A stretch of 64,000 nt of DNA from positions 5,350-69,349 of the IMG/VR virus record IMGVR_UViG_3300031965_000003, one strand, 5' to 3'. Positions 9,452-25,552 of this stretch are shown in pieces. How positions within the stretch are numbered: position 1 is the stretch's first letter; the number at the start of each line of letters is the position of its first letter. The stretch comes from a virus. The notes under the pieces were generated by a model. It was given only the letters and a program-made list of their open reading frames with translations. It ran no database searches and was not told where the DNA came from. Made by a program: the position numbers and the translations under genes.

Positions 9452-10097
9452 TTATGATGGACTGCCTAATAATATCGTTAGGATCTTGACCGGCGCCGGC
9501 CCACTCACCTAGCCGTTTGAGAGCTAATTTTTCGGCAAGAATAGTCAAGTGATATTTCTTAGGCATCCTCGCACGGTGATCCTTAAAATCATTCCATAAT
9601 TCCTGGTCAAGCCATTCTGGAAGAATTTCGGTTCCCTCTTCTCCCAAACCCTCTTCTCCTTCTTTCTGAGAAGAAGATAAGATAAGATTACCTTGGTTCG
9701 GTGATCCTTTTTGCTTCCTTGAGGAAGTTCGTTTTCCGTAATGCTTACCGTGCTTTAACCATACTGTCTTTAGGTAGTCTCTGTCCGTGTTGTGATACTT
9801 GCGCGCCAAATAATTACCCGCGTAGTTGAGCCAGTCGTGTAAGAGTTTGCCGTCTAACCAGTGATGCGTTTGGAGCAAGGAGACATACTGAGAAGCATCC
9901 GCCGAATAGCTAGAAGACTCGGCAATCAACTCATCCGACCAGGATGAAAGATCACCGTCTTCTTGCTGTTCTAAAGCAGCGTGCCAGAGTGCGTGAAGAT
10001 GCCCCATGACATAAACTGGTTTCAGGCGAAGGTCTTTCGCTAACTCAATCAACTTTCTATGCCTCAACAAAATCGTGTGAGATTCGATCCAGGCCAA
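9330..10097 (-). CDS. Phage replication initiator (replisome organizer-like)
   Basis: N-terminus MAWIESHTILLRHRKLIELAKDL; C-terminus WNDFKDHR...IRQSIINGWAGLF typical of phage O-like initiators. Confidence 0.75.
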   Translation of the reverse strand: MAWIESHTILLRHRKLIELAKDLRLKPVYVMGHLHALWHAALEQQEDGDLSSWSDELIAESSSYSADASQYVSLLQTHHWLDGKLLHDWLNYAGNYLARKYHNTDRDYLKTVWLKHGKHYGKRTSSRKQKGSPNQGNLILSSSQKEGEEGLGEEGTEILPEWLDQELWNDFKDHRARMPKKYHLTILAEKLALKRLGEWAGAGQDPNDIIRQSIINGWAGLFEVKNGAIGVNQKRKSEPAGFAGLRDFMAYKAKR

Positions 10098-11876: not shown

Positions 11877-13215
11877 TTTTAACCTCGTCTCCCGTTACGC
11901 CATTGTTTACTGCTGCAACTTCGCCATTTTCAATATAAACGCCGACCTTACCGCTCTCGTCGACCACTTCCATCCAGACCTGATAGTCTCTGTCTTGCGC
12001 CATCTCCTCGATGATCCGCATCGACTCGGAATCGAGCAGTGAGCCGTCAGTAATTCTTAGGACGTGTAATTTGGGATTGAGTGACATGGCCATCGCCATG
12101 CTAACCCTGAGTTGCTCGGCGCCGGAGGCTTGGGAGAGAGGCAAACCGTCGTAGGTCACCGCACCATTGCCAAAGCCTAGGGCATCCAACGGGAATTGCG
12201 CCGAGCTGATCAGTTCGGCCTTTTGCTGATCAATGCTGTCGATCGCCTTGGTGAGTTGATCAACCTTGGCATCGGTCGTCGCCAGTTCGGCCTTAAGACG
12301 CTTCATTTCCTTGACAGCGCGCTCGACCTCTGCTGACTTCCTCTCGAATTCGGCCAGCCGCTGCCGGATCAACTTGTTTTTCTTGCCAGCCTCTCTGATC
12401 TCGGCCTGTATGCCCGTGATGTCTGGAACCGTGATGGCGTCACGGTCGGTTGCAAGTGCATTGCGGATCTGTCGGACCTCGGAGAGTTGCACTTGCTTTT
12501 GGTCACGCTGCGCGGTCAACTTTATGATTTGGTCGTTTAGATTGTCGATGTCCCGAGTCAGCTCTCCGCCTCTGCGTTCGGCGTCGTCGGTCTTCATTTT
12601 GAAGCCATCCCGCTTCTGTTGCAGCGCCATGGCCTCATTGACTTTCTCCACCAAGTCGGCGACATCCGTTTCCTTTTCATCAACCAATGGCGGCAGCAAA
12701 GGCACGACGACAGAGGTCTCCTGTGCTTCGAGCCGCTTGGCGTCACGATTGATCTGGGTCCGCTCTTCGTAGAGCGCCTGTCTCTGCTGATCGAGCTTTG
12801 TCGTATCAATGCCGGTGAGCGCGCGCAGGGTATCGAATTGCTTTCGCTGATCCATCTGCATGAACTCCAAAGGATCGAAACTGAGTCGACCGATCAAACC
12901 GTCGAGCATGGTCTGCGGCGATTTGAAACGGAGACCGTCCTTGTTTTCGATCACCAGTGCGGTAGAACTCTCATTGAAACTGCGCTTGACGATGATGTCG
13001 CCGAGGTCGAGTTCTACGGCGGCTTTCTTCTGACCGCTGCGGATCGGTTTTTCCGGGATATTTTGTTGACCTCCCAACGCCCAGTAGATCGCATCCAGTA
13101 CGGAGGTTTTGCCGGCACTGTTCTTGCCGGTTATCTTGACGATATTACCGTTGGGAACGATTTCGACGGCGACGAGCTTTTTGATGTTCTCGGCGCGAAA
13201 TTTTATGATCCTCAT
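11809..13215 (-). CDS. SMC/Rad50-like AAA ATPase with coiled coil
   Basis: Walker A GKNSAGKTS, long coiled coil, signature ASGAEQL, ITDGSLLD. Confidence 0.9.
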   Translation of the reverse strand: MRIIKFRAENIKKLVAVEIVPNGNIVKITGKNSAGKTSVLDAIYWALGGQQNIPEKPIRSGQKKAAVELDLGDIIVKRSFNESSTALVIENKDGLRFKSPQTMLDGLIGRLSFDPLEFMQMDQRKQFDTLRALTGIDTTKLDQQRQALYEERTQINRDAKRLEAQETSVVVPLLPPLVDEKETDVADLVEKVNEAMALQQKRDGFKMKTDDAERRGGELTRDIDNLNDQIIKLTAQRDQKQVQLSEVRQIRNALATDRDAITVPDITGIQAEIREAGKKNKLIRQRLAEFERKSAEVERAVKEMKRLKAELATTDAKVDQLTKAIDSIDQQKAELISSAQFPLDALGFGNGAVTYDGLPLSQASGAEQLRVSMAMAMSLNPKLHVLRITDGSLLDSESMRIIEEMAQDRDYQVWMEVVDESGKVGVYIENGEVAAVNNGVTGDEVKNEFHKDQGREQTAERNPATTAG

Positions 13216-14195
13216 GACTTCGATCCTTTCTTGGCCATTGATTTCACGTTGAATCGCTCAGATGGTACTTTTTCGATTGCGTCTGGCGGCACCAGTTCCT
13301 CGATATACTTTTTTCGCTCACTGATGCTGATACTAATAAGATATTCCCCGGCACGCCCCGACTGCGCGTTAGCTTCCTTGAGTGCGGCTTTTAGCTGCCC
13401 TTTAAGTACATCTCGCTCCTTGCCGATTTCCGTTTCCTGCGCGCCCAACTCCTTGTAGTAGCGTGCCGTGGTTTCGAGTTCTTCGGCTAGCGCAACGTTC
13501 TCGGATAACGCCTTGACTTCCGCGACATAATTGCTCCAGCAGTGTTCCTGCCAGCGGCAATATCCGCAGTGCCAGTCGTCGAAATCATAAGGCCGCGGCG
13601 GTATCTCTCCGTCAGCCGCCATGCGCTCGACATTTTCAAACATGGCGATATCGGCGAGGGCCTGAGCCTCGTCGTACCGAATCGTAAACTCCTTCATCGT
13701 CGCCGTGTTCTTGTTCTTGTACAGAATTATGCCTTCGACGATGGGAAGCCCGGCTTTAGCCAAACCGTGTAGATAAAGATTTGCTTGCCGACGATGGTCG
13801 TCTAGAGGTTCGTCTTTGAGTCGCTCGAAACCGAAATGATTGATCGATTTGATTTCCAGTAGTCGGGTATATTCGAAGGGATCCGTGACTAAGCCGTCAA
13901 TCTCGCCGTCAAGTTTCTTGTCGCCGATCATGGCGATGAAGATGCGCTGCTTTGCGCCCTTGAGTTCGTCTAAACGAAATACCGTTTTGCGGATATGATC
14001 CTTGATCAATTTCTCATGAGTATTGCCATCCTCAAAGACAAGTAACGTTCGGCCAGGGAAACGATCAGGTTCAACCGCCGTGGCATGGTAGACCAAGGCA
14101 CGGACACATTTTCCGACGCTGCTAGGCCGTGGAAAATACGGACCTTGCTCTTCCTGATTATCGGCTGCATTGCGCGTGATTAGTTCAACCAACAT
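13212..14195 (-). CDS. Cas4-like PD-(D/E)xK exonuclease (phage recombination type)
   Basis: RPSSVGKC, GNTHE, DGEIDG, LLEIKS, RQANLY, DDWHCGYCRWQEHC; start moved to ATG 14195. Confidence 0.85.
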   Translation of the reverse strand: MLVELITRNAADNQEEQGPYFPRPSSVGKCVRALVYHATAVEPDRFPGRTLLVFEDGNTHEKLIKDHIRKTVFRLDELKGAKQRIFIAMIGDKKLDGEIDGLVTDPFEYTRLLEIKSINHFGFERLKDEPLDDHRRQANLYLHGLAKAGLPIVEGIILYKNKNTATMKEFTIRYDEAQALADIAMFENVERMAADGEIPPRPYDFDDWHCGYCRWQEHCWSNYVAEVKALSENVALAEELETTARYYKELGAQETEIGKERDVLKGQLKAALKEANAQSGRAGEYLISISISERKKYIEELVPPDAIEKVPSERFNVKSMAKKGSKS

Positions 14196-14631
14196 TGCGC
14201 AGATCCTTTTCCTTGTGCGGGCAAGGTAGTCCATCTTTTGTCGAACAGTTGCAGTTCCAACACAAAATAGTGAATTCGTCTTTCGGCCAACCTAATTTGG
14301 CAAGTGTCATGAGAAGACTAGTCGTGCTCTTTGTGTGCTCACGTCTCCATCTATGACCGCCGCCGTTTTTATGTTCCAAAGTAAGAAATCGCGGCTCAGT
14401 TTCACCGCAACAATTACAGCGACTTCCATACGCATGAATCATCTCCTCACGCAGTTGTCGGCTCCTACGTTGCCACCAAATTGACACTTTTTTTGAGCAG
14501 GATTTGCATCGGCTGTGCTTACCTGGAGACAGTGCGGGATTCTTTCCGCAGGCCCAACACAGTCCGTCCGCCTTCTTTTTGTCTTGCCATTTGATTCGAT
14601 CGGATGGTTTGGTTTTATAGCCTTTTGGCAT
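14185..14631 (-). CDS. Free-standing HNH homing endonuclease
   Basis: YGSRCNCCGETEPRFLTLEHKNGGG...ILCWNCN, with an N-terminal CxxC...CxxC zinc finger. Confidence 0.8.
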   Translation of the reverse strand: MPKGYKTKPSDRIKWQDKKKADGLCWACGKNPALSPGKHSRCKSCSKKVSIWWQRRSRQLREEMIHAYGSRCNCCGETEPRFLTLEHKNGGGHRWRREHTKSTTSLLMTLAKLGWPKDEFTILCWNCNCSTKDGLPCPHKEKDLRNVG

Positions 14632-14902: not shown

Positions 14903-15106
14903 CTATTCAGTGCGCCAGTAGCACGGATGCTCACGATCCAACTCGATCAAATCTGCAACGCTTATCTGCACCGTGCCGGCATTCAGGCTTTCCTGACACA
15001 TAAAAAGCCCTTGCCAACAACTTGCTGTCAGGCATTTATCGCAGACGGTGATTAAATCATCGAGTCGATTTTTCATCTGAAATTTACGAAATTGTATGTT
15101 GCTCAT
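14903..15106 (-). CDS. Hypothetical Cys-rich protein
   Basis: ITVCDKCLTASCWQGLFMC; start trimmed to ATG 15106 (15076 also possible). Confidence 0.6.
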   Translation of the reverse strand: MSNIQFRKFQMKNRLDDLITVCDKCLTASCWQGLFMCQESLNAGTVQISVADLIELDREHPCYWRTE

Positions 15107-15109
15107 ATC

Positions 15110-15145
15110 GAGTGAACGCCGACCTGAAGAAAAAGGGATTAAGAC
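15110..15145 (+). CRISPR. Solitary CRISPR-like repeat unit A (type III-style repeat, not an array)
   Basis: GAGTGAACGCCGACCTGAAGAAAAAGGGATTAAGAC (36 nt); the GACCTGA..AA.AAGGGATTAAGAC core and ATTAAGAC 3' end match the type III repeat family pattern as recalled; near-identical copy at 23499-23533. Confidence 0.7.
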
Positions 15146-15151
15146 TTTCCT

Positions 15152-15197
15152 CTTTCGTTCGCATGTCGTAGCAGAGACCGACATTGTTGCGACTCAT
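15152..15197. repeat. 46-bp imperfect direct repeat, copy 1 (adjacent to CRISPR-like repeat A)
   Basis: 39/46 identical to 15504-15549; first 20 nt (CTTTCGTTCGCATGTCGTAG) identical. Confidence 0.9.
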
Positions 15198-15199
15198 AG

Positions 15200-15493
15200 T
15201 TAGCATCCCTCATCGTGATAGCCGTCTTGCACGACGATCGGATCTCCACCAGCGTTGATGCCCTTGCCCTTGGATTCGACGCGCATAAGAATTATCGCAG
15301 AGTCAATATCGGGAGCCGAAACGGTATGGCAACGACCCCACTTGTCAAAGAGAGAGAGTTTCAATGTTACCAAGCGATCACAGTTGCTATGTTTCCACAG
15401 TTCCACGCCGATACAATAAATAGGCGTGGCGTCAAGTTCGTCTATTAAGTCTCTCGCTTTAGCTTCTGCTTCTTTAAGATCGTAAATCATCAC
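15200..15493 (-). CDS. Hypothetical acidic protein flanked by the 46-bp repeats
   Basis: 97-aa ORF with GGGGAG RBS. Confidence 0.65.
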   Translation of the reverse strand: MMIYDLKEAEAKARDLIDELDATPIYCIGVELWKHSNCDRLVTLKLSLFDKWGRCHTVSAPDIDSAIILMRVESKGKGINAGGDPIVVQDGYHDEGC

Positions 15494-15503
15494 GCTCTCC
15501 CCA

Positions 15504-15549
15504 CTTTCGTTCGCATGTCGTAGGGGAGACCCAAATTGTCGCGCTTCAT
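15504..15549. repeat. 46-bp imperfect direct repeat, copy 2
   Basis: See copy 1; sits just upstream of the RBS of 15200-15493. Confidence 0.9.
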
Positions 15550-15550
15550 A

Positions 15551-16528
15551 TCAGATAGCTTTCCCGCAGATATCGACTTCCCATATCGCGGCGCAGACCC
15601 CAGCAGCTTTAATCTTTTCTGGATACTTCGCGTTTTTGTGAACTTTGATCTGCGAGACTTTTAACGGACAGGCCATGAAATGTTTTGCCGCCGAATTAAA
15701 TTTCAGCGTGTGAATGGGTGACGGCGAGAAATGCAAACCGCCACCACACTCTGCTTCGCCGCCGTCCCAGTCTGCCGCTTGTGGTTTACCGCCCGACGTG
15801 TAAAAAATTCCGCGAATGCGGGCGTTGTCGGTAGAAAAATCCTCGTCAACACCCTTAAAGAGCACCGCGACGCCCTTTTTAATATCAACGCCGTAAAAAT
15901 CGCACCACTCTTTGGCGGTAGCAATTTCTGGAATTCGAATCTGTACGCCGCCTTTGGCTTTTACTTTTTGGCCATGAATAGTGACGGCGTTAAAGTCGGA
16001 AGCCGTCACCTGCGCGGAGTCGGAAGCCGTCACCTGCGCGGAGCCGTAAGCCCTCACCTGCGCGGAGCCGGAAGCCCTCACCTGCGCGGAGCCGGAAGCC
16101 CTCACCTGCGCGGAGCGCAAAGCCGTCACCTGCGCGGAGTCGGAAGCCGTCACCTGCGCGGAGTCGGAAGCCGTCACCTGCGCGGAGCCGAAAGCCCTCA
16201 CCTGCGCGGAGCCGAAAGCCGTCACCTGCGCGGAGCGCAAAGCCGTCACCTGCGCGGAGCCGTAAGCCGTCACCTGCGCGGAGTCGGAAGCCGTCACCTG
16301 CGCGGAGTCGGAAGCCCTCACCTGCGCGGAGCCGTAAGCCCTCACCTGCGCGGAGCCGAAAGCCCTCACCTGCGCGGAGCCGGAAGCCCTCACCTGCGCG
16401 GAGTCGGAAGCCGTCACCTGCGCGGAGCCGTAAATTTGAAAACTTTCCGTTCCAGTGCATTCTGGATAATCGCCGGATTCCAGCGCAGCGGTGAGTTCAC
16501 TCTGCGTTTTTACCAAAACCGTTTTCAT
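15551..16528 (-). CDS. Octapeptide-repeat beta-solenoid protein with DUF7666-like C-terminal domain
   Basis: 18 x AQV(T/R)AxxS followed by FKGVD...ECGGGLHFSPSP...KIKA. Confidence 0.75.
   Translation of the reverse strand: MKTVLVKTQSELTAALESGDYPECTGTESFQIYGSAQVTASDSAQVRASGSAQVRAFGSAQVRAYGSAQVRASDSAQVTASDSAQVTAYGSAQVTALRSAQVTAFGSAQVRAFGSAQVTASDSAQVTASDSAQVTALRSAQVRASGSAQVRASGSAQVRAYGSAQVTASDSAQVTASDFNAVTIHGQKVKAKGGVQIRIPEIATAKEWCDFYGVDIKKGVAVLFKGVDEDFSTDNARIRGIFYTSGGKPQAADWDGGEAECGGGLHFSPSPIHTLKFNSAAKHFMACPLKVSQIKVHKNAKYPEKIKAAGVCAAIWEVDICGKAI
15992..16423. repeat. 18 x 24-bp tandem repeat
   Basis: Unit (minus strand) GCGCAGGTGA(C/G)GGCT...CTCC. Confidence 0.95.
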
Positions 16529-16537
16529 ATCAATTCT

Positions 16538-16741
16538 TTACGCCCTCCCCACCAGTGGCCGGATCGCCGGCAACTCCTCAAACGACTCAAAATCGCGAGC
16601 TAGCGCCTGACGGTTCAAAACGTCAATCTGACCGTCGAGTTGGCCTAATTTGTAGGCCCAGATGAGTTTGCTTTCCGGCGACAACTCGATAAGTCCCCGA
16701 TATTCGCTAATCAGTTCGTCGTAGGTTGTGATTTTGTTCAT
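16538..16741 (-). CDS. Hypothetical protein
   Basis: 67-aa ORF with GGGGG RBS. Confidence 0.6.
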   Translation of the reverse strand: MNKITTYDELISEYRGLIELSPESKLIWAYKLGQLDGQIDVLNRQALARDFESFEELPAIRPLVGRA

Positions 16742-16868
16742 AAAGACCCCCTTGCCTGTTTTGTTACAGCCCCATGCCGTGACGAACTTGACCCCTTCAC
16801 CCGGTGTACGCTAGGCAATATTATTCGACACAATTTTAACCCGCAGGGCGGGCAGAATATTCCGCGTT

Positions 16869-17090
16869 TCATCTATCACCCCCATCATGCGGGTTGTTCA
16901 GCGCCTCGTGATAGCAGTCCCAGTGCGCCCACGTTTGTTCTTTAGTGTAAAAGTCGTGGCCGTATTTGGTGCTGTCGTCAGTTGGCGCAATGGGTTTCTT
17001 GCAGAAGACGCAGTCGCCTTTACTAAATACCAGCGCCTGTTCAGGAAATTTCCGACTGCCATAATTTAGACGATCGCGATTGACTGCCAT
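16869..17090 (-). CDS. Hypothetical Zn-finger protein
   Basis: CVFCKKPI...HWDC. Confidence 0.6.
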   Translation of the reverse strand: MAVNRDRLNYGSRKFPEQALVFSKGDCVFCKKPIAPTDDSTKYGHDFYTKEQTWAHWDCYHEALNNPHDGGDR

Positions 17091-17092
17091 CT

Positions 17093-17284
17093 TTACAGCC
17101 CCATGCTCTCAAACCACTTGAACAGCCAGTTATCGAATCGCCCCCTGACGACGAAGAGAACGGCGGCAACGAGTCCTAGCGAGACGACAACCGTAGTCAA
17201 CGTCAGCAGATCCTCAGAGATGCCTGGTTTCTGATTGCGGTTCGGCTTCGGTGCAAAATCAGAGATCAGTATTTTTCTGCTCAT
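17093..17284 (-). CDS. Small membrane protein
   Basis: One hydrophobic helix LLTLTTVVVSLGLVAAVLFVV. Confidence 0.55.
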   Translation of the reverse strand: MSRKILISDFAPKPNRNQKPGISEDLLTLTTVVVSLGLVAAVLFVVRGRFDNWLFKWFESMGL

Positions 17285-17640
17285 TGTGACTCCAATTCTT
17301 TTAGTCGCTTTTCTCGTTCAGCTATCTCCGCGCGGAGCCTATCTATTTCGGCGGCTCGTTTCATTTTCGCGTCATATTCGAGTCGAGCTGTCTTTTGGAC
17401 TTCGGTCTCAATCGGCACCGCCGTAAAGTATTTGTCGCCACGAGGATCGGGACGAACCGTAATGGAGTCGAAGCCCATCTTTTTGCCCAGCTTCGCCCAT
17501 GCCGCGTTAGCGTTTTCTTGAGGACTAGGTGACCTATAGTCACCAATCATCATCACTCGCGTGGGCTTACTACAGGCGTCGAGCAACTCGGTCAAATCCT
17601 CTTCGGACATCTCGTATTGCACTCGTGGATTCACAGTCAT
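17281..17640 (-). CDS. Hypothetical phage protein
   Basis: 119-aa ORF with ATGA overlaps. Confidence 0.65.
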   Translation of the reverse strand: MTVNPRVQYEMSEEDLTELLDACSKPTRVMMIGDYRSPSPQENANAAWAKLGKKMGFDSITVRPDPRGDKYFTAVPIETEVQKTARLEYDAKMKRAAEIDRLRAEIAEREKRLKELESQ

Positions 17641-17728
17641 GCCCTCCGAACACTGAGCACGATTAATCTCTGATACGGTTTGAGATCGACAAGGCGGCGA
17701 CGACGGAAGATTAGTGAGAGCAGTTTCT

Positions 17729-18388
17729 TCATTCGCCCCTCCTCAGTCCCACCCCATGACAGGTCTCGCAGACATAGATCGGCATGCCAGAAATCCAGCC
17801 CCTGTGCCTGAGCGCCGCGTAGCATTCCGGACATGCCGCGCTTGGTCCCTTGTCGCCATGCAGAATCGGCTGACATTTTGTTTCTTCTTTGAGACTTGGA
17901 TTGCATTGGAGATTGATCGCCTCTTTATTTTTATAATAGTGCCGAAGCGCAGCTACTCTTGCGCAGGTACGACAGGTTCGTGCCCCAGTTACGTTAACGA
18001 AAACATTGTCACCGGAATATGGATGCCCATGAGGGCAATGCGTCTTGGCGAGTTTAGCCGCTATCGCCCGCTGTCGATTCTTCTCGGTAAACCCATTTCG
18101 GTGTTTCGCTTTTCGATCCGCCATATTGTCTTGATGTGTCCCAAGAAAAAGATGTTCGGGATTAACGCAATTACAAACATCGCAGTGATGGAGAACGTGG
18201 AGACCGTCTGTTATCGCGCCATGAGTCAATTCCCAGGCGATCCTGTGTGCTCTCACTGTTTTGCCCTTCCAATGCACCAATCCGTAGCGATGATCATTGC
18301 GGCCGCCAATGGCGCCGGTCCAGAGCCAACAATTCATGGTTTTATTGACGTAGTTCCAAAAATTATCGACGTTCATTTTTGACACCAT
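17729..18388 (-). CDS. HNH homing endonuclease
   Basis: CWLWTG...YG...RAHRIAWELTHG...VLHHCDVCNCVNPEHLFLGTHQDNMAD, then THCPHGHPY...CRTC; start trimmed. Confidence 0.88.
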   Translation of the reverse strand: MVSKMNVDNFWNYVNKTMNCWLWTGAIGGRNDHRYGLVHWKGKTVRAHRIAWELTHGAITDGLHVLHHCDVCNCVNPEHLFLGTHQDNMADRKAKHRNGFTEKNRQRAIAAKLAKTHCPHGHPYSGDNVFVNVTGARTCRTCARVAALRHYYKNKEAINLQCNPSLKEETKCQPILHGDKGPSAACPECYAALRHRGWISGMPIYVCETCHGVGLRRGE

Positions 18389-18659
18389 CGCTATGGATAA
18401 TCGGAAGTGCGTAGTTTTGAGCGAAATAAAAATTTTGAAGAATGTGATCGACCGAGTCCTGATCGCCACTGGCTACAGCCTTGACGAGTCTCGCCTTGAG
18501 GTCATCGAGACGAATGACCGGGATTTTGAGATCACGCTTCGGCTTCGGGTGCGGAGATTTGATCATGGGTGATTTCCGATTGAGTTGCCTACGCAGCACC
18601 CTGCTCTTGGGCGTTGATGATTTTCCGCGCTTTGCGGATGAGAGCCGAATGTCTGGCAT
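18363..18659 (-). CDS. Hypothetical basic protein
   Basis: ORF track; true start may be internal. Confidence 0.45.
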   Translation of the reverse strand: MPDIRLSSAKRGKSSTPKSRVLRRQLNRKSPMIKSPHPKPKRDLKIPVIRLDDLKARLVKAVASGDQDSVDHILQNFYFAQNYALPIIHSDGVKNERR

Positions 18660-18768
18660 AATAAGCAGCCGCTCGACATGCCCGACCGCAGTATTTCTGC
18701 CATTCGCTCACCGGCACAAATTCCCGCTTGCACCGTCTGCATTTTTTCGGCTTTACTTTTGGAATCAT
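18589..18768 (-). CDS. Small Zn-finger protein, first gene after internal promoter
   Basis: CRRCKREF...QKYCGRAC; ATG 18768 with GGAG RBS. Confidence 0.65.
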   Translation of the reverse strand: MIPKVKPKKCRRCKREFVPVSEWQKYCGRACRAAAYYARHSALIRKARKIINAQEQGAA

Positions 18769-18810
18769 AGTGGTACTCCTTAGCACGTGCGTCATAAATT
18801 CAAATGTTCT

Positions 18811-18848
18811 ATGACGTATGTAATACGTCATGTCGCATAGTTTGTCAA
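18811..18848 (-). promoter_or_regulatory. sigma70-like promoter with palindromic operator
   Basis: TTGACA (18843-18848), 17-nt spacer, TATTAC (18820-18825); perfect inverted repeat ATGACGTAT-GTA-ATACGTCAT at 18811-18831. Confidence 0.65.
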
Positions 18849-18883
18849 GGGGGTATTTAAAAAAATGTTGATGACGCAGATTT

Positions 18884-19141
18884 TCAATCAATTATTGGGC
18901 AATTGAGTAGCGCTGCATAGTGCGATTGTAATTGCACCGATTGTTCAAGCGCCGCATTGAGTCTCTCAATTGATACGATCCGTAAAGCCCAATAACCATC
19001 ACTGCGTTCAACCCATTCACCAAATTTAACGCTTCGACCTTGAGAGTTTTCGACTTCTATGAAGCGCCCGGATTCATGACTTGGCGGACCATCAAAAACG
19101 ATATCGATATAATCTATCGGCATGCGTTTTGTTTCGTTCAT
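18884..19141 (-). CDS. Hypothetical protein
   Basis: 85-aa ORF. Confidence 0.6.
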   Translation of the reverse strand: MNETKRMPIDYIDIVFDGPPSHESGRFIEVENSQGRSVKFGEWVERSDGYWALRIVSIERLNAALEQSVQLQSHYAALLNCPIID

Positions 19142-19551
19142 TTAAATCCTCGCTTTCTTTCTCTCCGATAGTCCGCTCGTTTACTCCCGACGTTGGCGTC
19201 CATATCGAGCTTGCGCATGTCGTAAAAACCCAAGCGTTCGCAGATTCTCATCATCTGGTGTGGGGTGTTTCGTAATTCATTAAATATCAGCGCCCCGGCA
19301 CAGTGAGGCGTTTCTTCCTTTGGCTGAAAGACTTCGAAGCCATCATCATCCTCGATGAGTTCGCAAGCCTTGTGACAACCGAATTCGCCGCTGGCATGTT
19401 CCACCAAACTAGCGAAAGTAAAGCCGCTGGTTTTCAGAAATGGGCATTCTTTACAGGGCGCCGTCATGGTGTAGTTCACGGGTCCTCGCTTTCTTTCTCG
19501 CGCCGGCTTAACGGACCGGCGCTGGAGGTTGACTAGACCTGCCGCTCCCAC
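19138..19551 (-). CDS. Cys-rich hypothetical protein (PCxxCPF...CHK...CAGA; DUF6283-like pattern)
   Basis: Motif pattern; real start probably near 19470. Confidence 0.55.
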   Translation of the reverse strand: MGAAGLVNLQRRSVKPARERKRGPVNYTMTAPCKECPFLKTSGFTFASLVEHASGEFGCHKACELIEDDDGFEVFQPKEETPHCAGALIFNELRNTPHQMMRICERLGFYDMRKLDMDANVGSKRADYRRERKRGFK

Positions 19552-19578
19552 TCGGACGGGAGGTCCGCCCGGAGGAAG

Positions 19579-19920
19579 TCAAAAAGTCAGCTCGTCAAAA
19601 TCCGGATGCTCGCCGGCACGCTTGAGCGCGAGACCGCGCTCCTTATCGAGCGACTCCAGTTTAGCGACTAAACCGGCGCCATCGATCGACCATTTTTCCG
19701 CGAGGCCATCGCCCTCGCAGGCATCGAGGATCTCGTGCGCTATCTGGCCGCCGAGACCGGGCCGGATCTGGTGGCCGGTAAACGCATCGACTAGATTGAG
19801 GTCTGCGTGAGACTCGTCGAGTATCGTACCGTTGAGCACGTCTAAGATTGCAGCTTTTTCGTTGCGGCTAAAATTAATCATCGGTGATACCCTCCCACGC
19901 TTCTGAAAATTCACGTTCAA
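19579..19920 (-). CDS. Hypothetical acidic protein
   Basis: ORF track; start probably ATG near 19882. Confidence 0.55.
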   Translation of the reverse strand: MNVNFQKRGRVSPMINFSRNEKAAILDVLNGTILDESHADLNLVDAFTGHQIRPGLGGQIAHEILDACEGDGLAEKWSIDGAGLVAKLESLDKERGLALKRAGEHPDFDELTF

Positions 19921-20515
19921 AAAATAAAGAGGCTAGACCAGAGACTTGTTTTAGCCGGATCACTTCATCCCGGTCAAGACCGACTTCGCGAGATATTTTT
20001 TCATCGCTCCAATTGCGGCGGACCAGATCTACCACAATCGCGCTCATGGCATCCACCTGATGTTTGCCACGTGCCCGATTGTGTCGGATAGTAGATGCTA
20101 TCCGATCGCCACGATCAGTGCGCTCATCATTGATCACCGTGATTGGCAAACGACCGTGGACACGATCCTTGATTACAGCCACTTCACGGCCAACGCGGTT
20201 GCGATGGAACCCGTCAACCACTTCATAATCATTTTCCTCTCTGAAGGTAACAATCGGCTGAGTGTAACCGTCCTCTTCGATTGATGTCTGCAACAGGCGC
20301 ATCTCTGGGCTAGCCACGCGGTTTGGGTTGTAATCGTTAGCGCGCACCAGCTCCTGTTTCACCCAAAGAACGCAGTCCACCGGCTCATGTTTCAGCGGAC
20401 TGTACTCACGCAGCATGAGTTTGATTTCATTGATTGCGTCAATACGAGCATCATCATCTAATTCGCGCAACCCTTGTAGCGCAGAGGCTACTATGTCGAT
20501 TAGATTGTCCCCCAT
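19874..20515 (-). CDS. ibrB: IbrB-like ParB/Srx domain protein
   Basis: HEPVDCVLWV, ANDYNPNRVASPEMRLL..SIEEDGYTQPIV, VVDGFHR, ASTIRHNRARGKH. Confidence 0.88.
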   Translation of the reverse strand: MGDNLIDIVASALQGLRELDDDARIDAINEIKLMLREYSPLKHEPVDCVLWVKQELVRANDYNPNRVASPEMRLLQTSIEEDGYTQPIVTFREENDYEVVDGFHRNRVGREVAVIKDRVHGRLPITVINDERTDRGDRIASTIRHNRARGKHQVDAMSAIVVDLVRRNWSDEKISREVGLDRDEVIRLKQVSGLASLFFEREFSEAWEGITDD

Positions 20516-21705
20516 CGCATCCTCCGTTTTTTCATAATCTTTCGATAGCGCTCGTAGGCTTGACTATTGGTCTGGGTAAAGCTCAGACCTTTAAACCAGT
20601 AGTCGTTGCGCAATAGCGCTTTACATATACGCCGCCAGGACGGGGCTTTATGTTGAGCTTCCAATTTAGGATCGGCCTCATCGGGGATTCCGCTCTGGTA
20701 GCCGCGATCTCCATACCAGTGCAGAAACACGGCGATTTTGTTTTCGTAGTGATCCTTCGATCCCGCCGGCATTGTAGCGAGTAAAAATTTAGCGAAGCTC
20801 TCCCATGTATGATTTTCAGGCTTGCTGATTTTTAATCGACCGAGAATGTTGCCGCTCTCACGCGCATATAGAGCGCCGGAATTGGCGCCAGCCACACGCG
20901 CCACGACTTTGCCCCAGGTCTCCGGCTCGATGACATGATACAGCCAAAGACCTTTGCGCTGGTCATCTCCATAAGGCTGGCAGATACGCATCTGATGGAT
21001 AGTCAAACCGGCCTGATACATGCGGTCGTAGAGAGCGTTATAACAGACACCTTCCCGCGCCGTGTAGGTCCACAGATCCTCGGTGCGCCAATCATAGATT
21101 GGATAGATATTATAGACCGCGCCGCTTTTCCATGTCGTCCATTGTTTGTCATCGAAGCGCGTCTTGTCCGCGATCAACGTGCGAAACCGATTAAGCGATT
21201 CGTCCGCGCGAATGCCGACGAAACAGGCGGTCAGTTTATTCCCGCCGTACCAGTGGCCGAAAAACTCCACAAACTCCTCGAACTCCATGCCTCGATGAAA
21301 AAATGGGAACATCGATCCGTCGGTTATTGCGAGCTTTGGCGGCTGGCGCACCCAATCATCGCGCCGGTTCGGGTCCCAGCATTGCCAGCGTGGCTCGATC
21401 ATGCTGACGGCGTTGCGCAGGTTGATAGGCAGGGCGATCCAGTACGGCTCGATCTGATTTTTATAAATATTATAGCAGCGCTCAGCATGCGTCATCGTCA
21501 GTTTGTATTGCGCTTCAAGATCGATCAGCAGCAGTCCGACTTTGCGGTTGCGTTTCTTGGCCTCGGCCATAACCAAGTGCAGCATCACAGTGGAGTCTTT
21601 GCCCGCCGAAAAACTCAAGTAAACTTTCTCGAACGTGTCGAACACCCACGATATCCGCTGTCGCACTGCGGTCAACACGTCTAGGCCGAGCGGACGCTTA
21701 GGCAT
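20500..21705 (-). CDS. ibrA: IbrA-like PAPS-reductase/PP-loop protein with DUF3440
   Basis: SFSAGKDS PP-loop, VGIRADESLNR, YPIYDW, MRICQPYGDDQRKGL, PSWRRICKALLRNDYW. Confidence 0.9.
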   Translation of the reverse strand: MPKRPLGLDVLTAVRQRISWVFDTFEKVYLSFSAGKDSTVMLHLVMAEAKKRNRKVGLLLIDLEAQYKLTMTHAERCYNIYKNQIEPYWIALPINLRNAVSMIEPRWQCWDPNRRDDWVRQPPKLAITDGSMFPFFHRGMEFEEFVEFFGHWYGGNKLTACFVGIRADESLNRFRTLIADKTRFDDKQWTTWKSGAVYNIYPIYDWRTEDLWTYTAREGVCYNALYDRMYQAGLTIHQMRICQPYGDDQRKGLWLYHVIEPETWGKVVARVAGANSGALYARESGNILGRLKISKPENHTWESFAKFLLATMPAGSKDHYENKIAVFLHWYGDRGYQSGIPDEADPKLEAQHKAPSWRRICKALLRNDYWFKGLSFTQTNSQAYERYRKIMKKRRMRWGTI

Positions 21706-22067
21706 CGCATCACCTCGTCGCGCGACAGCGTTTCTTTTTCAAAGCCGTTGTACCGGCAAAAATATCGGTTGAACTTTTTCCAGCCGAGAGGTTCGTGAAC
21801 CTCGTAAATCTTGCCGTCATCGAGAATAAAGTGCAGATACACACCGCGCGATGCCGCCCCATTAGATTGAGAATAGTCTTTGGCTCCTCTAAGGAACTGC
21901 CGATCAAACCCGCGCTGCGAGTCGAGCCCTTTAATCTCCGCTACCCAAGGCCGCTGAGGCAGCGGCCGGAATAGATGTTTCGGCGGAGTCAGTCCATGTT
22001 TTTTGTGCATGGAAATCTCGTAGTGACGATTCTCCGCGACGAATTCCAAGCCGAGCGAATGTTTCAT
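21681..22067 (-). CDS. Hypothetical protein directly upstream of ibrA
   Basis: PWVAEIKGLD...RQFLRGAKDYSQSN...SRGVYLHFIL; overlaps the ibrA start. Confidence 0.7.
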   Translation of the reverse strand: MKHSLGLEFVAENRHYEISMHKKHGLTPPKHLFRPLPQRPWVAEIKGLDSQRGFDRQFLRGAKDYSQSNGAASRGVYLHFILDDGKIYEVHEPLGWKKFNRYFCRYNGFEKETLSRDEVMRCLSVRSA

Positions 22068-22675
22068 CTCGCCCCTCCCGGCGCCGGCAAGGCGAGAGCT
22101 TTGGCCGCGCCATCGATCAAGCCTGCCATCTTTTTATATTCAAGGCTCATCGATTGAAACTGCCCCCCCGTCTCCTGCGCGAGTAATCGTAAAAACTCCT
22201 CGCCGGCATGAGGTCTAGGCCCAACATAAAAAACATCAATTTGGACACCCCGGCTTTGCATCTGGCGGGCCTCGGCGAGCGCCGCGCTGGTGTCATCAGG
22301 GAGGCCATCGCTGATTAACACACAATGTTTTGCCCCCTTTTGCCGCGCGCTCGCCAGCGCTTCGTGCAACGGAGTCGATCCCCGTGGCTCTGGGATGTAA
22401 TCCGCGACATGCTCGCCACGGCCATTCCACGGATCGGGAAAAATAATCTGAGTAAATCCAACGCGCTGTCGCAACGCAGTGACGATCTCGCGCAGTGCGT
22501 CGATTTTCGCGCGCCCAGGCTCTACATAATCAGCCATAGATCCTGAGCAGTCGAGCAGTAAAAAAGAGTGGTTTGCCTGCTCTGCGCGGCGCTGTTGTTG
22601 TTGCCTGTCTCTGACGGTCTCAGAGAGGGATTTTCTTTGCAGAGAATTTTGCAATTTGGCGACTAAATCGGTCAT
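22064..22675 (-). CDS. von Willebrand factor A domain protein
   Basis: MIDAS motif LLLDCSGSM...GSTPLHEAL...LISDGLPD. Confidence 0.9.
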   Translation of the reverse strand: MTDLVAKLQNSLQRKSLSETVRDRQQQQRRAEQANHSFLLLDCSGSMADYVEPGRAKIDALREIVTALRQRVGFTQIIFPDPWNGRGEHVADYIPEPRGSTPLHEALASARQKGAKHCVLISDGLPDDTSAALAEARQMQSRGVQIDVFYVGPRPHAGEEFLRLLAQETGGQFQSMSLEYKKMAGLIDGAAKALALPAPGGAR

Positions 22676-22683
22676 GACTCCTC

Positions 22684-23436
22684 CTATAGCGCAAGTGCAA
22701 CGGCCTTTTTGATCGCCGCTTTCAGCGCTGTCGCGCCTTCCGCATCCGTGCCGGGCCGAAACGCCAACTCTTTGAGTTTCTGATAGGTCGCCCAGGCTGA
22801 CTCTGCCTCGGTATTCAGTTCGCCCGTCTCCGCGCGATGGATAATCAAGTCCTCTAGTGCGAGCAACGCCGCGAGTTCCTTCCCGTCAGAATTTAACCCG
22901 GCGGCTTCGGATGATGGCGCATCGGCCACGGGCGCCGATTGCGCGCCAGACTGCTCGATGATTTGATAATCCCACGCCGGTTGATCTTTCAGGGCGATGC
23001 CGCGCGGGACATCGCGAATTTCCACTATTGCGTTTTTTGCGACGATCGCGGGATTTTTGCGCGAGCCGCCACTACCAAGATCACCATCACTAACGATCAC
23101 GCCCGTCCCCAAGCGCACGCCGCCGTCGCGGCCATACTTGAGTTGCGCAATTTGCCTGCCGGCGACAAACAAGGAATCGTAATGACCGTTGATCCCGATG
23201 CGGATCGTCACTAGATCAACTGCCGCCTCGGTCCCGTCAACACCGAATATTTCTCGGCACAGTCCCCTGACTCGCGCCTCGTCTCGCGGATCAAACGACC
23301 ATTCTCGGCTCTCAGCCTGCCAAGTGCCGCCTAATTTTTTTGCCGCTGCGGGGAAATCGGGGTGATAAGGGCTGGAGATGCGGAGACGTTGACGACCATC
23401 TTTTAGGACGACCGTCCGATAATTGATATTTGACAT
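22684..23436 (-). CDS. Hypothetical phage early protein
   Basis: SPYHPDFPAAAKKLGGTW...WSF N-terminal module; GGAGG RBS. Confidence 0.7.
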   Translation of the reverse strand: MSNINYRTVVLKDGRQRLRISSPYHPDFPAAAKKLGGTWQAESREWSFDPRDEARVRGLCREIFGVDGTEAAVDLVTIRIGINGHYDSLFVAGRQIAQLKYGRDGGVRLGTGVIVSDGDLGSGGSRKNPAIVAKNAIVEIRDVPRGIALKDQPAWDYQIIEQSGAQSAPVADAPSSEAAGLNSDGKELAALLALEDLIIHRAETGELNTEAESAWATYQKLKELAFRPGTDAEGATALKAAIKKAVALAL

Positions 23437-23447
23437 GGTATCCTCCC

Positions 23448-23474
23448 CGCTCCGGGTCAGCGGAGCGTTTTTTT
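23448..23474 (+). terminator. Hairpin with T7 tail (plus-strand terminator; on the minus strand it overlaps an RBS)
   Basis: CGCTCCG-GGTCAG-CGGAGCG followed by TTTTTTT. Confidence 0.55.
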
Positions 23475-23479
23475 AGGCT

Positions 23480-23497
23480 CGGTTAGCTCCGGGCGGG
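23480..23497. repeat. Early-region leader motif, copy 1 (minus strand CCCGCCCGGAGCTAACCG)
   Basis: Shared with 24964-24991 and 25284-25311; the 11-nt core also occurs at 24038-24048. Confidence 0.85.
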
Positions 23498-23498
23498 C

Positions 23499-23533
23499 GA
23501 GTGAACGACGACCTGAAGAAAAGGGATTAAGAC
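23499..23533 (+). CRISPR. Solitary CRISPR-like repeat unit B
   Basis: GAGTGAACGACGACCTGAAGAAAAGGGATTAAGAC; differs from unit A by one substitution and one A deletion. Confidence 0.7.
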
Positions 23534-23569
23534 CATGCTGCACACTCACCGCGTGGCAATAACACGTCT

Positions 23570-23854
23570 TCATTCCTCCAAGAGCAAGAAGCCTTCTGGG
23601 CGATCATTTTTTGCATTATTAAAGTAGATTCTGGTTGTCATACAATTCCGATCAAATGTAAGCGATTTGGTTTTCAGAGTTTTACAACCGACCCAACCGC
23701 TATGTTTCAGGGCACGCATTATGGTTTTATTGTCACAATCCTGATCATCGGGTAAGGTACAAACATGAGATGTTTTTAACACATTAAAAACGTTCCACCC
23801 GTCCTTTTTGGACCCCCATTTTTCATAGATGTAAACTCTCCATGTCCGTTTCAT
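23570..23854 (-). CDS. Hypothetical protein
   Basis: 94-aa ORF in early operon. Confidence 0.65.
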   Translation of the reverse strand: MKRTWRVYIYEKWGSKKDGWNVFNVLKTSHVCTLPDDQDCDNKTIMRALKHSGWVGCKTLKTKSLTFDRNCMTTRIYFNNAKNDRPEGFLLLEE

Positions 23855-24036
23855 GTTAATTGCTCCTTACTCCTTAGTTGACTAATTTGACGTTGTGCAT
23901 ATTGCCAAATCAAACGTTCAGTGCAGTGAGCTTCCAGCATCTGCGACATGGCCGTTGCTAAAGCTTTCGCAGCACACTCACCATGTGTGGACGCCATTAT
24001 TTCCGCATAATAGTTAAATTTTTCATCTACATTCAT
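23851..24036 (-). CDS. Hypothetical protein
   Basis: ATG 24036 preceded by CCCGGAGCTAAA. Confidence 0.6.
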   Translation of the reverse strand: MNVDEKFNYYAEIMASTHGECAAKALATAMSQMLEAHCTERLIWQYAQRQISQLRSKEQLT

Positions 24037-24055
24037 TTTAGCTCCGGGTAGGCTA

Positions 24056-24406
24056 TTATATTTCCGAGATAACGTAGGTAATCGCCGGGCCTGCAATTGC
24101 TCGTAGACGATCAATACCTAGCTCAACCCCTCGATCTGCTGGGGTCAAAGCTAGCGGTATCTCAGTAACGCTAGCCGCCAATACGGCTAGTGACAGTGGG
24201 AGCACGCCAACCACGTGGCATGCCTCTACATCGTCAGGCTCCGCGTGAGCAATCACGCGAGCATTGTCAGTGACAAGCCCGCGCTCTCGCAGTAGCTCAA
24301 CGAGCGCCGGGTGACGAGTTACCACTACCACGGGCGCGCACGGTGCGCCGGCATCCGGTACGATGCCGCAAAAACGGCATCGACCGTTAGTAAATTTGTG
24401 TTTCAT
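24056..24406 (-). CDS. Csx16 (VVA1548)-family protein; candidate cyclic-oligoadenylate ring nuclease / anti-CRISPR
   Basis: VVVVTRHPALVELLRERG...VIAHAEPDDV...VVGVLPLSLA...LALTPADRGVEL matches recalled Csx16 consensus (SRHPGAIEWL..QG...VAHLD..D...VIGTLPVHLA...LDLP..LRG.EL) along its length. Confidence 0.78.
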   Translation of the reverse strand: MKHKFTNGRCRFCGIVPDAGAPCAPVVVVTRHPALVELLRERGLVTDNARVIAHAEPDDVEACHVVGVLPLSLAVLAASVTEIPLALTPADRGVELGIDRLRAIAGPAITYVISEI

Positions 24407-24422
24407 TTTCTTCTTGTTCTCC

Positions 24423-24728
24423 TTATTCTGTTTCCGCGGCGACAGCGTCGCTGAGCTTTTTCCGCTCGGCGGCTGTTAATTGCCGGATGCCGCCACGCTC
24501 GGTCTGGATCGCCGCGCTCTCGTACTGCGATTGTCCGCTTGATGCCACCAAGCGGACCACCTCCCTAAAACCCTGAGCCCGCACGGTCTGGCATAGATCA
24601 TCCCAGACAACCCACGCCTTATCGTGGATAGAGCGGGCTGGTTTAACCACTGTCACGGTCGCTGCTGTCGCGGGCAGAGGACTGCCAGGTCGCCACCCCG
24701 GCGGCGGTATTGTAGTAATTTTTATCAT
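24423..24728 (-). CDS. Hypothetical protein
   Basis: 101-aa ORF. Confidence 0.55.
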   Translation of the reverse strand: MIKITTIPPPGWRPGSPLPATAATVTVVKPARSIHDKAWVVWDDLCQTVRAQGFREVVRLVASSGQSQYESAAIQTERGGIRQLTAAERKKLSDAVAAETE

Positions 24729-24952
24729 TCTATTGTTCTTTTATTATAATATTCCGTAATGGAGCCTGGGTTGCCTAACCCCTCCCACTCCTCCCATAGA
24801 CAAGCCGCTGCGCGGGTAGCTGCTGTGGCATCCACGCTAGCCGCGATTGCCGAGATCGCGGCTAGATTGGCATCGCTGATCCAGCTGCGGCAGAGGGAGA
24901 CTGCCTCCCTCACGCCGATCCCTGCCGCGGTCAGGTCTAATACGTTAAACAT
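24725..24952 (-). CDS. Hypothetical protein
   Basis: GGAGG RBS directly after the leader hairpin. Confidence 0.6.
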   Translation of the reverse strand: MFNVLDLTAAGIGVREAVSLCRSWISDANLAAISAIAASVDATAATRAAACLWEEWEGLGNPGSITEYYNKRTIE

Positions 24953-24963
24953 TTCGTTCCTCC

Positions 24964-24991
24964 GTTCTCGGCCCGGTTAGCTCCGGGCGGG
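24964..24991. repeat. 28-bp direct repeat / leader hairpin, copy 2
   Basis: GTTCTCGGCCCGGTTAGCTCCGGGCGGG, identical to 25284-25311. Confidence 0.92.
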
Positions 24992-25011
24992 CTTGCTGGT
25001 GCGCTCCATTA

Positions 25012-25251
25012 TCAATCCAATCCTCGCGCAACAAATCCGCGTTGCGCCAACGGGACACAAATATGATCCTCACACGCGCCATTGACGACGCGGTAGATAG
25101 CTCCGCAGTCCTTGCAGGAGAGCGAGCCGTACTTAGTCGTCCGCGCCACATCATTATTTTTTAGGATATCAAACTCGGCCTTCCGCGCCGCCCAGCAACA
25201 TGGGCGCTGTGGGTCGTCAGTGTTACAAAAATGTCGGTATTTGCGTTCCAT
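25012..25251 (-). CDS. Hypothetical Cys-rich protein flanked by 28-bp repeats
   Basis: GGAGGAGG RBS; CC, CKDC, C..H.C. Confidence 0.65.
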   Translation of the reverse strand: MERKYRHFCNTDDPQRPCCWAARKAEFDILKNNDVARTTKYGSLSCKDCGAIYRVVNGACEDHICVPLAQRGFVARGLD

Positions 25252-25283
25252 TTTGTCCTCCTCCGCTCCGGTCGGGGAGCGTT

Positions 25284-25311
25284 GTTCTCGGCCCGGTTAG
25301 CTCCGGGCGGG
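25284..25311. repeat. 28-bp direct repeat / leader hairpin, copy 3
   Basis: Identical to 24964-24991; contains perfect stem GCCCGG-N6-CCGGGC. Confidence 0.92.
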
Positions 25312-25497
25312 TTTGGTGTTTTTTGGGTCGATTTTTTTTAGCACATCACCGGTTAGGCCTTGCGCGTGGGCGGTGCGTAGGCAGTGCGCATGGATCGCCT
25401 CGGCAATAAACCGCTGGAGGGTTACCCCAGTGCGCGCGGAGAGAAACTTAGCCGCCGCGTGAGTTGCGTTATCCAAACCTGTAATCCGTAGTTCCAT
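25297..25497 (-). CDS. Ribbon-helix-helix (Arc/CopG-like) regulator, first early gene
   Basis: Alternating strand ELRITGLD, then helices NATHAAAKFLSARTG and VTLQRFIAEAI. Confidence 0.65.
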   Translation of the reverse strand: MELRITGLDNATHAAAKFLSARTGVTLQRFIAEAIHAHCLRTAHAQGLTGDVLKKIDPKNTKPARS

Positions 25498-25519
25498 TTT
25501 TTGCCCCCTCCCTATGTAT

Positions 25520-25552
25520 TGTGTAATTTAACACATTCCGCATATTTGTCAA
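25520..25552 (-). promoter_or_regulatory. Early sigma70-like promoter with overlapping inverted repeat
   Basis: TTGACA (25547-25552), 16-nt spacer, TGn-TAAATT (25525-25530); TGTGT-N6-ACACA brackets the -10; AT-rich upstream tract. Confidence 0.65.

Follow-up and report, generated by a model that had tools for sequence, protein, structure and literature searches.

Phages cannot easily evade type III CRISPR systems through point mutations, and to our knowledge few counter-measures against these systems are known. The ring nuclease Csx16 has been shown experimentally to be specific for cyclic tetra-adenylate (cA4), and it was found in 2 of 28,114 cultured phage genomes (Hoikkala et al. 2025, PMC12409355). 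Viral solitary repeat units can serve as RNA anti-CRISPRs (Racrs), which inhibit types I-C, I-E, I-F and V-A, type III not being among those shown (Camara-Wilpert et al. 2023, PMC10651486), and viruses have also been found to carry CRISPR mini-arrays (PMC11656645).

Here we analyzed a window of 64,000 nt, bases 5350–69349 of the 95,009-bp IMG/VR virus record IMGVR_UViG_3300031965_000003, which was recovered from a soil metagenome and rated 80% complete; positions below are those of the window unless a locus name precedes them. The locus under study, which is the early/accessory arm of a tailed phage of about 95 kb from soil, holds a stand-alone gene of the Csx16 family and two solitary CRISPR repeats. 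A first-pass annotation, made from the sequence alone, had read these as a protein and RNA module against type III CRISPR, and all the features it named were recovered, either exactly or within 1–2 nt. We consider the best overall explanation, which is somewhat better than an even chance, to be that Csx16 is the working factor and that the repeats are captured CRISPR units carried along as antisense passengers. Both Csx16 genes and solitary repeats were already known from phages; new here are the co-inheritance of Csx16 and a repeat in one cassette, its occurrence for type III and the antisense arrangement. The pairing of Csx16 with repeat RNA, which the first-pass annotation had taken to be undescribed, is indeed unusual, but its principle is not new, for solitary repeats co-located with anti-CRISPR (acr) genes have been described (PMC10651486).

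The phage Csx16 protein and its virus-borne relatives

The gene at 24056..24406 on the minus strand encodes a stand-alone protein of 116 aa, a predicted cA4 ring nuclease. Its product matched the Pfam family PF09652 (Cas_VVA1548) with an E value of 6.9e-13 and 49 bits against a cut-off of 25, covering 87 of the 91 profile positions, and a scan of the genome with PF09652 returned the same match as the protein-level search. A search of 5.8 billion proteins yielded 101 Csx16 homologs, the best of them with 75% identity over the core, and all 14 invariant columns of a 32-sequence homolog alignment are kept in the phage protein (T30 R31 H32, L35, H54, G67 V68 L69 P70, L73, A74, P84, L85 and L96). 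Both the profile score and the retained residues bear out the earlier assignment of this gene to the Csx16 family. Ahead of the core, the phage protein has an N-terminal extension of about 25 aa containing a CxxC motif. The AlphaFold model of the protein scored a confident pLDDT of 90, and the solved folds nearest to it are the AcrIII-1/Crn2 ring nucleases, with about 16% sequence identity in the structural alignment; a fold search of the Swiss-Prot part of AFDB returned nothing significant. Matches from a profile search of the PDB were designed ankyrin proteins over 20 residues and were discarded as spurious.

Judged from its sequence, Csx16 is quite likely to act as an anti-type-III factor, and it is most likely the working factor of this kind in the locus. 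Very probably it is a phage ring nuclease, predicted to blind a type III-B system by removing its cA4. A Csx16 dimer would bind and cleave the cyclic tetra-adenylate made by Cas10, as AcrIII-1 does, and with cA4 cleaved the CARF/SAVED effectors of the host would never switch on. Alternatively, the homolog might have another role, as a sponge for cyclic oligoadenylate (cOA) or as a regulator of another cyclic-nucleotide pathway, with the repeats unrelated to it. The related protein Csx15, which is without clear ring-nuclease activity, and the extra Cys-containing N-terminus of the phage protein would fit such a role, but Csx16 itself cleaves cA4 (PMC12409355 for both proteins), every invariant family residue is retained, and the gene is located among early accessory genes next to a type III repeat; we regard this alternative as extremely unlikely.

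A profile-based scan of IMG/VR detected Csx16 relatives in at least 42 contigs. The closest relatives, with 60–75% identity, are found in phage-like contexts, and four of the closest homologs lie amid small phage-type genes with no cas genes within 4–6 kb, whereas the Csx16 domain of L007, a type III-B locus linked to an array of related repeats, shares 25% identity with the phage protein. Given these phage-like close relatives and the low identity to L007, the gene belongs to a virus-borne Csx16 lineage and is not a recent theft from a host, so the earlier inference that it had been taken from a host type III locus is not supported. Stand-alone Csx16 thus makes up a sizeable virus-borne clade, with dozens of metagenomic phages as against two cultured ones, and this clade implies that ring-nuclease anti-CRISPRs extend beyond AcrIII-1.

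Profile searches of the 95-kb phage record found no cas genes, and no second Csx16, Cas6 or DUF1874 (PF08960) protein. A tblastn search of a cultured-phage collection returned no match to Csx16 and just distant matches to the head protease, so the host could not be inferred from cultured phages. A single-sequence pattern search of IMG/VR gave no close relatives of Csx16 or of a neighboring 250-aa gene, and no Csx16 was listed among the called neighbors of more distant relatives of the latter. The repeat core had no copy in the 42 viral Csx16 loci. Within the wider clade, two Csx16 paralogs lie about 500 bp apart on one phage-like contig (L099:6001-7150). Separately, an element of about 55 nt whose reverse complement ends in GGCGACTGTGGATTGAAAC, a CRISPR-repeat-like end, was seen at L076:1122-1177 and 9711-9766, at L073:82-225 and in L102-L108. 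It occurs once or twice in each of five IMG/VR contigs, two of them with Csx16, and may be another instance in which a solitary repeat accompanies viral Csx16; no host array was found for it.

Two solitary repeats and the type III arrays of their family

Repeat A, of 36 nt, occupies 15110..15145, between the Shine-Dalgarno-like AAGAGGAAA and the ATG at 15106 of a minus-strand gene, and repeat B, of 35 nt, occupies 23499..23533, antisense to the operon and abutting a hairpin element; both have their CRISPR RNA (crRNA) sense on the plus strand. The two copies differ by one substitution and by one A in an A-run, their similarity stops sharply at both ends, and no match of this kind is expected in shuffled sequence. 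They are 8,389 nt apart, repeat A lying 8.4 kb from the cassette that contains Csx16, and repeat B ends 523 nt downstream of the Csx16 stop codon, which agrees with the earlier description of near-identical repeats at 15110 and about 520 bp past Csx16. No third copy was found in the 95-kb record. RNA folding predicted almost no structure for the repeats in either orientation and gave unremarkable z-scores for their flanks.

To place these repeats, metagenomes were scanned with the 3' 19–20 nt of the repeat as the pattern, and arrays of 73, 43, 34, 31, 22, 21 and 16 repeats, among others, were recovered. Their repeats are 36 nt long with spacers of about 33 nt, and they have the 3' end CCTGAAGAAAAAGGGATTAAGAC in common, while the 5' 13 nt are variable. 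For the arrays of 73, 43, 34 and 31 repeats, agreement with the phage repeats at the 3' end extends over 23–25 nt. Repeat A has the same 36-nt length and register as the array repeats and agrees with them at 25–31 of 36 positions, including 23–26 identical 3' bases, the first 19–20 of which are the search pattern itself. Since the pattern accounts for these bases, what counts as independent evidence is that arrays exist, that further bases match beyond the pattern, and that lengths and boundaries agree.

The array of 73 repeats stands in locus L007, in which Cmr4, Cmr5, Cmr6, a Csx1-Csx16 fusion, a SAVED protein, Cas1 and Cas2 precede it in this order. The fusion (L007:2595-4139) is a protein of 514 aa that joins a Csx1-like CARF domain (TIGR02221, with the DxTHG motif) to a C-terminal Csx16 domain and looks like a self-limiting effector-ring nuclease, by analogy with Csx1-Crn2. 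In locus L023, the array of 43 repeats adjoins a gene for a Csm6-like CARF-HEPN protein. Given these neighbors, the repeat family belongs to cOA-signalling type III systems, and Csx16 is a natural component of the systems that use it. The description of the phage repeats as type III-style is therefore upheld by real arrays, which share their length, register and 3' bases and have type III-B neighbors. The repeats are almost certainly derived from CRISPR, and they point to the kind of system that the phage faces, a cA4-signalling type III-B system; they also provide a handle for finding its host.

The repeat search that the first-pass annotation had proposed for identifying host and subtype thus led to type III-B arrays of the same family, but not to the exact host array, whose repeat would read GAGTGAACGCCGACC...AAGAC. 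In species genomes, a 22-mer from the 5' and central part of the repeat gave one hit, inside a coding sequence of Chlorobiaceae and put down to chance, and no array; in IMG/VR it had no match. Solitary repeats of the same family were also observed at L011:113-149 and L033:1980-2015, beside small toxin-antitoxin-like genes on contigs of non-viral appearance; the copy in L011 agrees with repeat B at 31 of 35 positions.

Orientation, cassette and possible roles of the repeats

The orientation of the repeats was read from the related arrays. In L007, cas2 is followed by the leader and then by the first repeat, and the array ends in a degenerate repeat; in L023 the far repeat is degenerate. From this it follows that the crRNA sense of both phage repeats is the plus strand. 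In type III repeats the last 8 nt become the 5' tag of the crRNA, and the 3' end of the phage repeats, GGGATTAAGAC, resembles such tags. This strand is opposite to every phage gene, all of them being on the minus strand, so that the early mRNA carries anti-repeats and not repeat mimics. The operon RNA, if transcribed, holds an anti-repeat starting with the anti-tag GUCUUAAU, and no terminator-like signal separates the repeats from the surrounding genes on the minus strand. When the plus strand was scanned, neither repeat had a sigma-70-type promoter in the 250 nt upstream of it or a terminator shortly downstream. The nearest plus-strand promoter is 360 nt ahead of repeat A, and a hairpin with a T-run intervenes; immediately upstream of repeat B, the plus strand has a hairpin and then seven T's. 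A weak plus-strand motif (TTCATC, 17 nt, TATGTT) precedes repeat A and would start transcription 2–3 nt before it. A hairpin and T-run upstream of both repeats was considered as a shared feature and rejected, because the copy at repeat A falls in coding sequence and probably resembles the other by chance. The features of the single early transcription unit that was thought to include the repeats are thus present, but both repeats are antisense to it, and, given this orientation and the missing sense signals, the proposal that the early transcript delivers Racr-type repeat RNAs is not supported.

Variation in the cassette was followed in Logan contigs of four soil runs. A contig of run X4 joins 23437 directly to 24971 and so skips 1533 nt, with 39 intervening nt that copy the hairpin at 23447-23469. 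Since a related phage is without 23438..24970, this interval, which contains five ORFs (open reading frames) including Csx16 as well as repeat B, can be taken as one accessory cassette, and the co-inheritance of repeat B and Csx16 in one unit of 1.5 kb is supported. One swappable phage cassette can accordingly hold a gene of a ring-nuclease family and a repeat of the matching type III-B family. An intergenic hairpin element of the CCCGGAGCUAACCGGG type is located on the minus strand at 23470..23504, 24964-24998 and 25284-25318, its core also at 24038-24048; the copies stand upstream of ribosome-binding sites in the early operon and bound the cassette, and so the element may mediate cassette gain and loss, or RNA processing.

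The surroundings of repeat A show what was added there. A 50-nt leader with a small ORF (15149..15198, minus strand) is 84% identical to 15501-15550, where the second copy runs straight into the next gene with no repeat and encodes a small ORF of 19 aa whose stop codon overlaps the start of that gene; in the copy at 15149..15198 the small-ORF reading frame continues through repeat A. Because the second leader copy is without a repeat, it looks as though exactly one repeat unit, repeat A, had been inserted at the first. Beside repeat B, a non-coding stretch of 36 nt (23534..23569), which is spacer length, separates the repeat from the stop codon of the ORF at 23570-23854, and no target of it was found in the phage, the fetched loci or IMG/VR. 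A second X4 contig, the single one with this arrangement, has two repeats separated by 33 nt. Relative to a ribosome-binding site and ATG, this spacer is antisense, as a working type III spacer should be; searches of the phage, the fetched loci and IMG/VR gave no target for it either. Given that the flanks of repeat A are uncovered in X4, this contig could be part of a host array or of a viral mini-array. In the phage genome itself no two repeats surround a spacer of normal length; they are 8.4 kb apart and each single, and no spacer is therefore defined.

We read the repeats as captured CRISPR units because they are antisense to the operon and have no recognizable promoter or terminator of their own. 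The single repeats would be mini-arrays that collapsed by repeat-repeat recombination, and the exact unit length makes such a collapse of repeat-spacer-repeat arrangements the simplest explanation. They would then be transcribed only as anti-repeat passengers of the early mRNA and not as repeat-mimicking Racr RNAs; that they are currently without function we put a little short of an even chance. Several points weigh against this explanation. The repeats are of full length and hardly differ, and repeat B lies at one margin of an anti-defence cassette, which argues for function over relic, and solitary repeats are enriched beside acr genes (PMC10651486). The exact host repeat, with the 5' half GAGTGAACGCC, was absent from 185,579 species genomes and from IMG/VR, and 248 spacers of the related arrays gave no real match to the phage. 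The NCBIfam model of Csx16, TIGR02620, had no match to the phage protein at E <= 0.01. Moreover, the promoter scans assume a sigma-70 consensus that may not be that of the host, and the cassette joint was seen in one contig, on one side of which the match is 29 nt long.

That the repeats act in the sense direction, either as Racr or as guide, is rather doubtful overall. As Racrs they would mimic the repeats of the host, sequester Cas6 or Cmr subunits and cooperate with Csx16. Their full length and their agreement with a type III-B repeat family suit this model, as do the place of repeat B in one cassette with a ring-nuclease gene 523 nt away, the clustering and inhibitory record of viral solitary repeats cited above, and the weak motif before repeat A; but both repeats are antisense to all genes, the scans showed neither a plus-strand sigma-70-type promoter within 250 nt nor a terminator close downstream, and the hairpin and T-run stand immediately upstream of repeat B. 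A sense RNA would also be titrated by the complementary and presumably abundant early mRNA, and a type III Racr is without a tested example, so we consider the model unlikely. Still less likely is that each repeat together with the sequence following it forms a one-repeat crRNA gene or an emptied mini-array, which would direct host type III complexes against competing phages or against the phage's own leader RNA at 15501-15550. The X4 contig with its antisense spacer would be a parallel, and the sequence after repeat A has a perfect match of 20 nt at 15504-15523. Such a guide, however, needs plus-strand transcription, for which no signal was seen, the sequence after repeat B had no target, self-targeting would be costly, and the X4 contig may belong to a host array.

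Action as antisense RNA is about as doubtful as action in the sense direction. Here the anti-repeat in the early mRNA would be the active form, either by pairing with the repeats of host pre-crRNA, which would block processing by Cas6 or invite RNase III, or by placing the anti-tag (GUCUUAAU...) beside about 35 nt of the transcript, so that a crRNA reads it as 'self' and Cas10 stays off. Tag/anti-tag pairing is known to prevent Cas10 activation in type III systems, both copies have the orientation that the model calls for and belong to the transcribed operon, in which no minus-strand terminator precedes them, and a non-coding stretch of 36 nt, spacer length, adjoins repeat B. Nevertheless, the model is without precedent, no host spacer was found to match the sequences beside the repeats, cis protection would cover just about 35 nt per repeat, complexes already loaded would not be disarmed by blocking crRNA processing, and it is hard to explain by it the insertion of exactly one repeat through recombination with an array; we hold it to be unlikely, to the same degree as the Racr model. 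Less likely again is that antisense repeats in an early mRNA constitute a new kind of RNA anti-CRISPR, by anti-tag or pre-crRNA duplex, alongside a ring nuclease. If this were true, the anti-tag would stop cA4 synthesis, or the duplex would stop crRNA maturation, and the ring nuclease would remove residual cA4. The captured-unit explanation is thus the one we keep, and the antisense repeats offer a concrete case for asking whether solitary repeats are only mimics or also anti-repeats and anti-tags.

The early operon, its neighbors and comparison with known systems

The operon is headed by a promoter-like site at 25525..25552 on the minus strand (TTGACA, 16 nt, TAAATT, with an upstream TG), which agrees with the consensus at 10 of 12 positions. 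Read from the sequence, its -10 lies between the arms of a 5-nt inverted repeat, TGTGT/ACACA, and the TTGACA promoter with an inverted repeat around its -10 was thereby seen again at 25552-25525. The first gene (25297..25497, minus strand) encodes 66 aa, probably a ribbon-helix-helix (RHH) DNA-binding protein and a candidate autoregulator. It shows a strand-helix-helix pattern and had been named an RHH regulator, but its match to the RHH family PF07704 (E 0.0025, 19 bits) is below the cut-off of 28; a PDB sequence search gave no match and other family searches nothing further. The early sigma-70-like promoter (25552-25525), with the palindrome over its -10, would drive the operon, and its first product, probably a small RHH repressor, would perhaps repress its own promoter.

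The other small genes are all on the minus strand. Family searches gave no match for a Cys-rich ORF of 79 aa (25012..25251), for an ORF of 75 aa (24725..24952) or for one of about 61 aa (23851..24036, likely starting at ATG 24036), and family and atlas look-ups of an ORF of 101 aa (24423..24728) had no informative match. The ORF of 94 aa at 23570..23854 has folds similar to those of uncharacterized viral proteins; atlas look-ups of two cassette ORFs were uninformative. The profile and structure searches that had been suggested for all ORFs from 23570 to 25497 thus placed Csx16 above its cut-off and none of the others.

Elsewhere in the record, matches to PHROG families at 30–62 kb include a tape-measure protein, a tail fibre J-like protein and a head protease, and profile matches at 5–22 kb include helicase, Cas4-like exonuclease and PAPS-reductase/ParB genes; the Csx16 and repeat B locus lies within a stretch of small genes past the tail genes. 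All ORFs of at least 250 aa are on the minus strand, except two that are nested in longer minus-strand ORFs. An Rfam scan of the window had no match, a tRNA search found none, and no public RNA runs containing the phage were found. The Cas4-like PD-(D/E)XK exonuclease (phrog_1706/1990) at 13212-14234 adjoins an SbcC-like ATPase, and the two probably form a recombination module and not a CRISPR-related function. A protein of 325 aa at 15551-16528 consists in part of about 18 tandem 8-residue repeats of the ALTTAQ type, with a DNA period of 24 nt. A ParB_N protein followed by a PAPS-reductase/DUF3440 protein at 19874-21705 presumably resembles the IbrB/IbrA gene pair, and a structural-region protein of 1331 aa (53500-57495) has glycosyltransferase, methyltransferase and HNH matches.

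Compared with Aca-controlled acr operons, the locus is similar in encoding a small candidate DNA-binding protein and in having a palindrome that overlaps the promoter of an operon with an anti-CRISPR-type gene; it differs in that the putative regulator is the first gene and its RHH match is below the cut-off. With virus-borne CRISPR mini-arrays (PMC11656645) it shares host-type repeats in a virus and, in a related soil sample, a repeat-spacer-repeat contig, whereas the phage repeats stand 8.4 kb apart, each alone. The likeness to Racrs and viral solitary repeat units (Camara-Wilpert et al. 2023, PMC10651486) is closer: each repeat is a lone, full-length CRISPR-like repeat with no cas genes adjacent, and one copy lies less than 1 kb from an anti-CRISPR-type gene. 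Unlike them, the phage repeats are antisense to the surrounding operon, have no recognizable sense promoter within about 250 bp in sigma-70-type scans, belong to a type III repeat family and lack an exact host counterpart among the genomes searched.

For the protein, CRISPR-associated Csx16 (PF09652/TIGR02620) is the nearest relative, sharing the sequence family, the TRH/H/GVLP residues, a core of about 90 aa and perhaps, by prediction, a CARF-like fold. The phage protein differs from it in being phage-encoded in a 95-kb record without cas genes, in belonging to a virus-borne clade, in its 25-aa N-terminal extension with CxxC and in having no match to the NCBIfam model. It is not a member of AcrIII-1 (DUF1874/Crn2), PF08960 having no match in the phage and the identity being about 16%, but AcrIII-1 is its best structural match, and both are alike in the predicted degradation of cA4 that would blind type III effectors.

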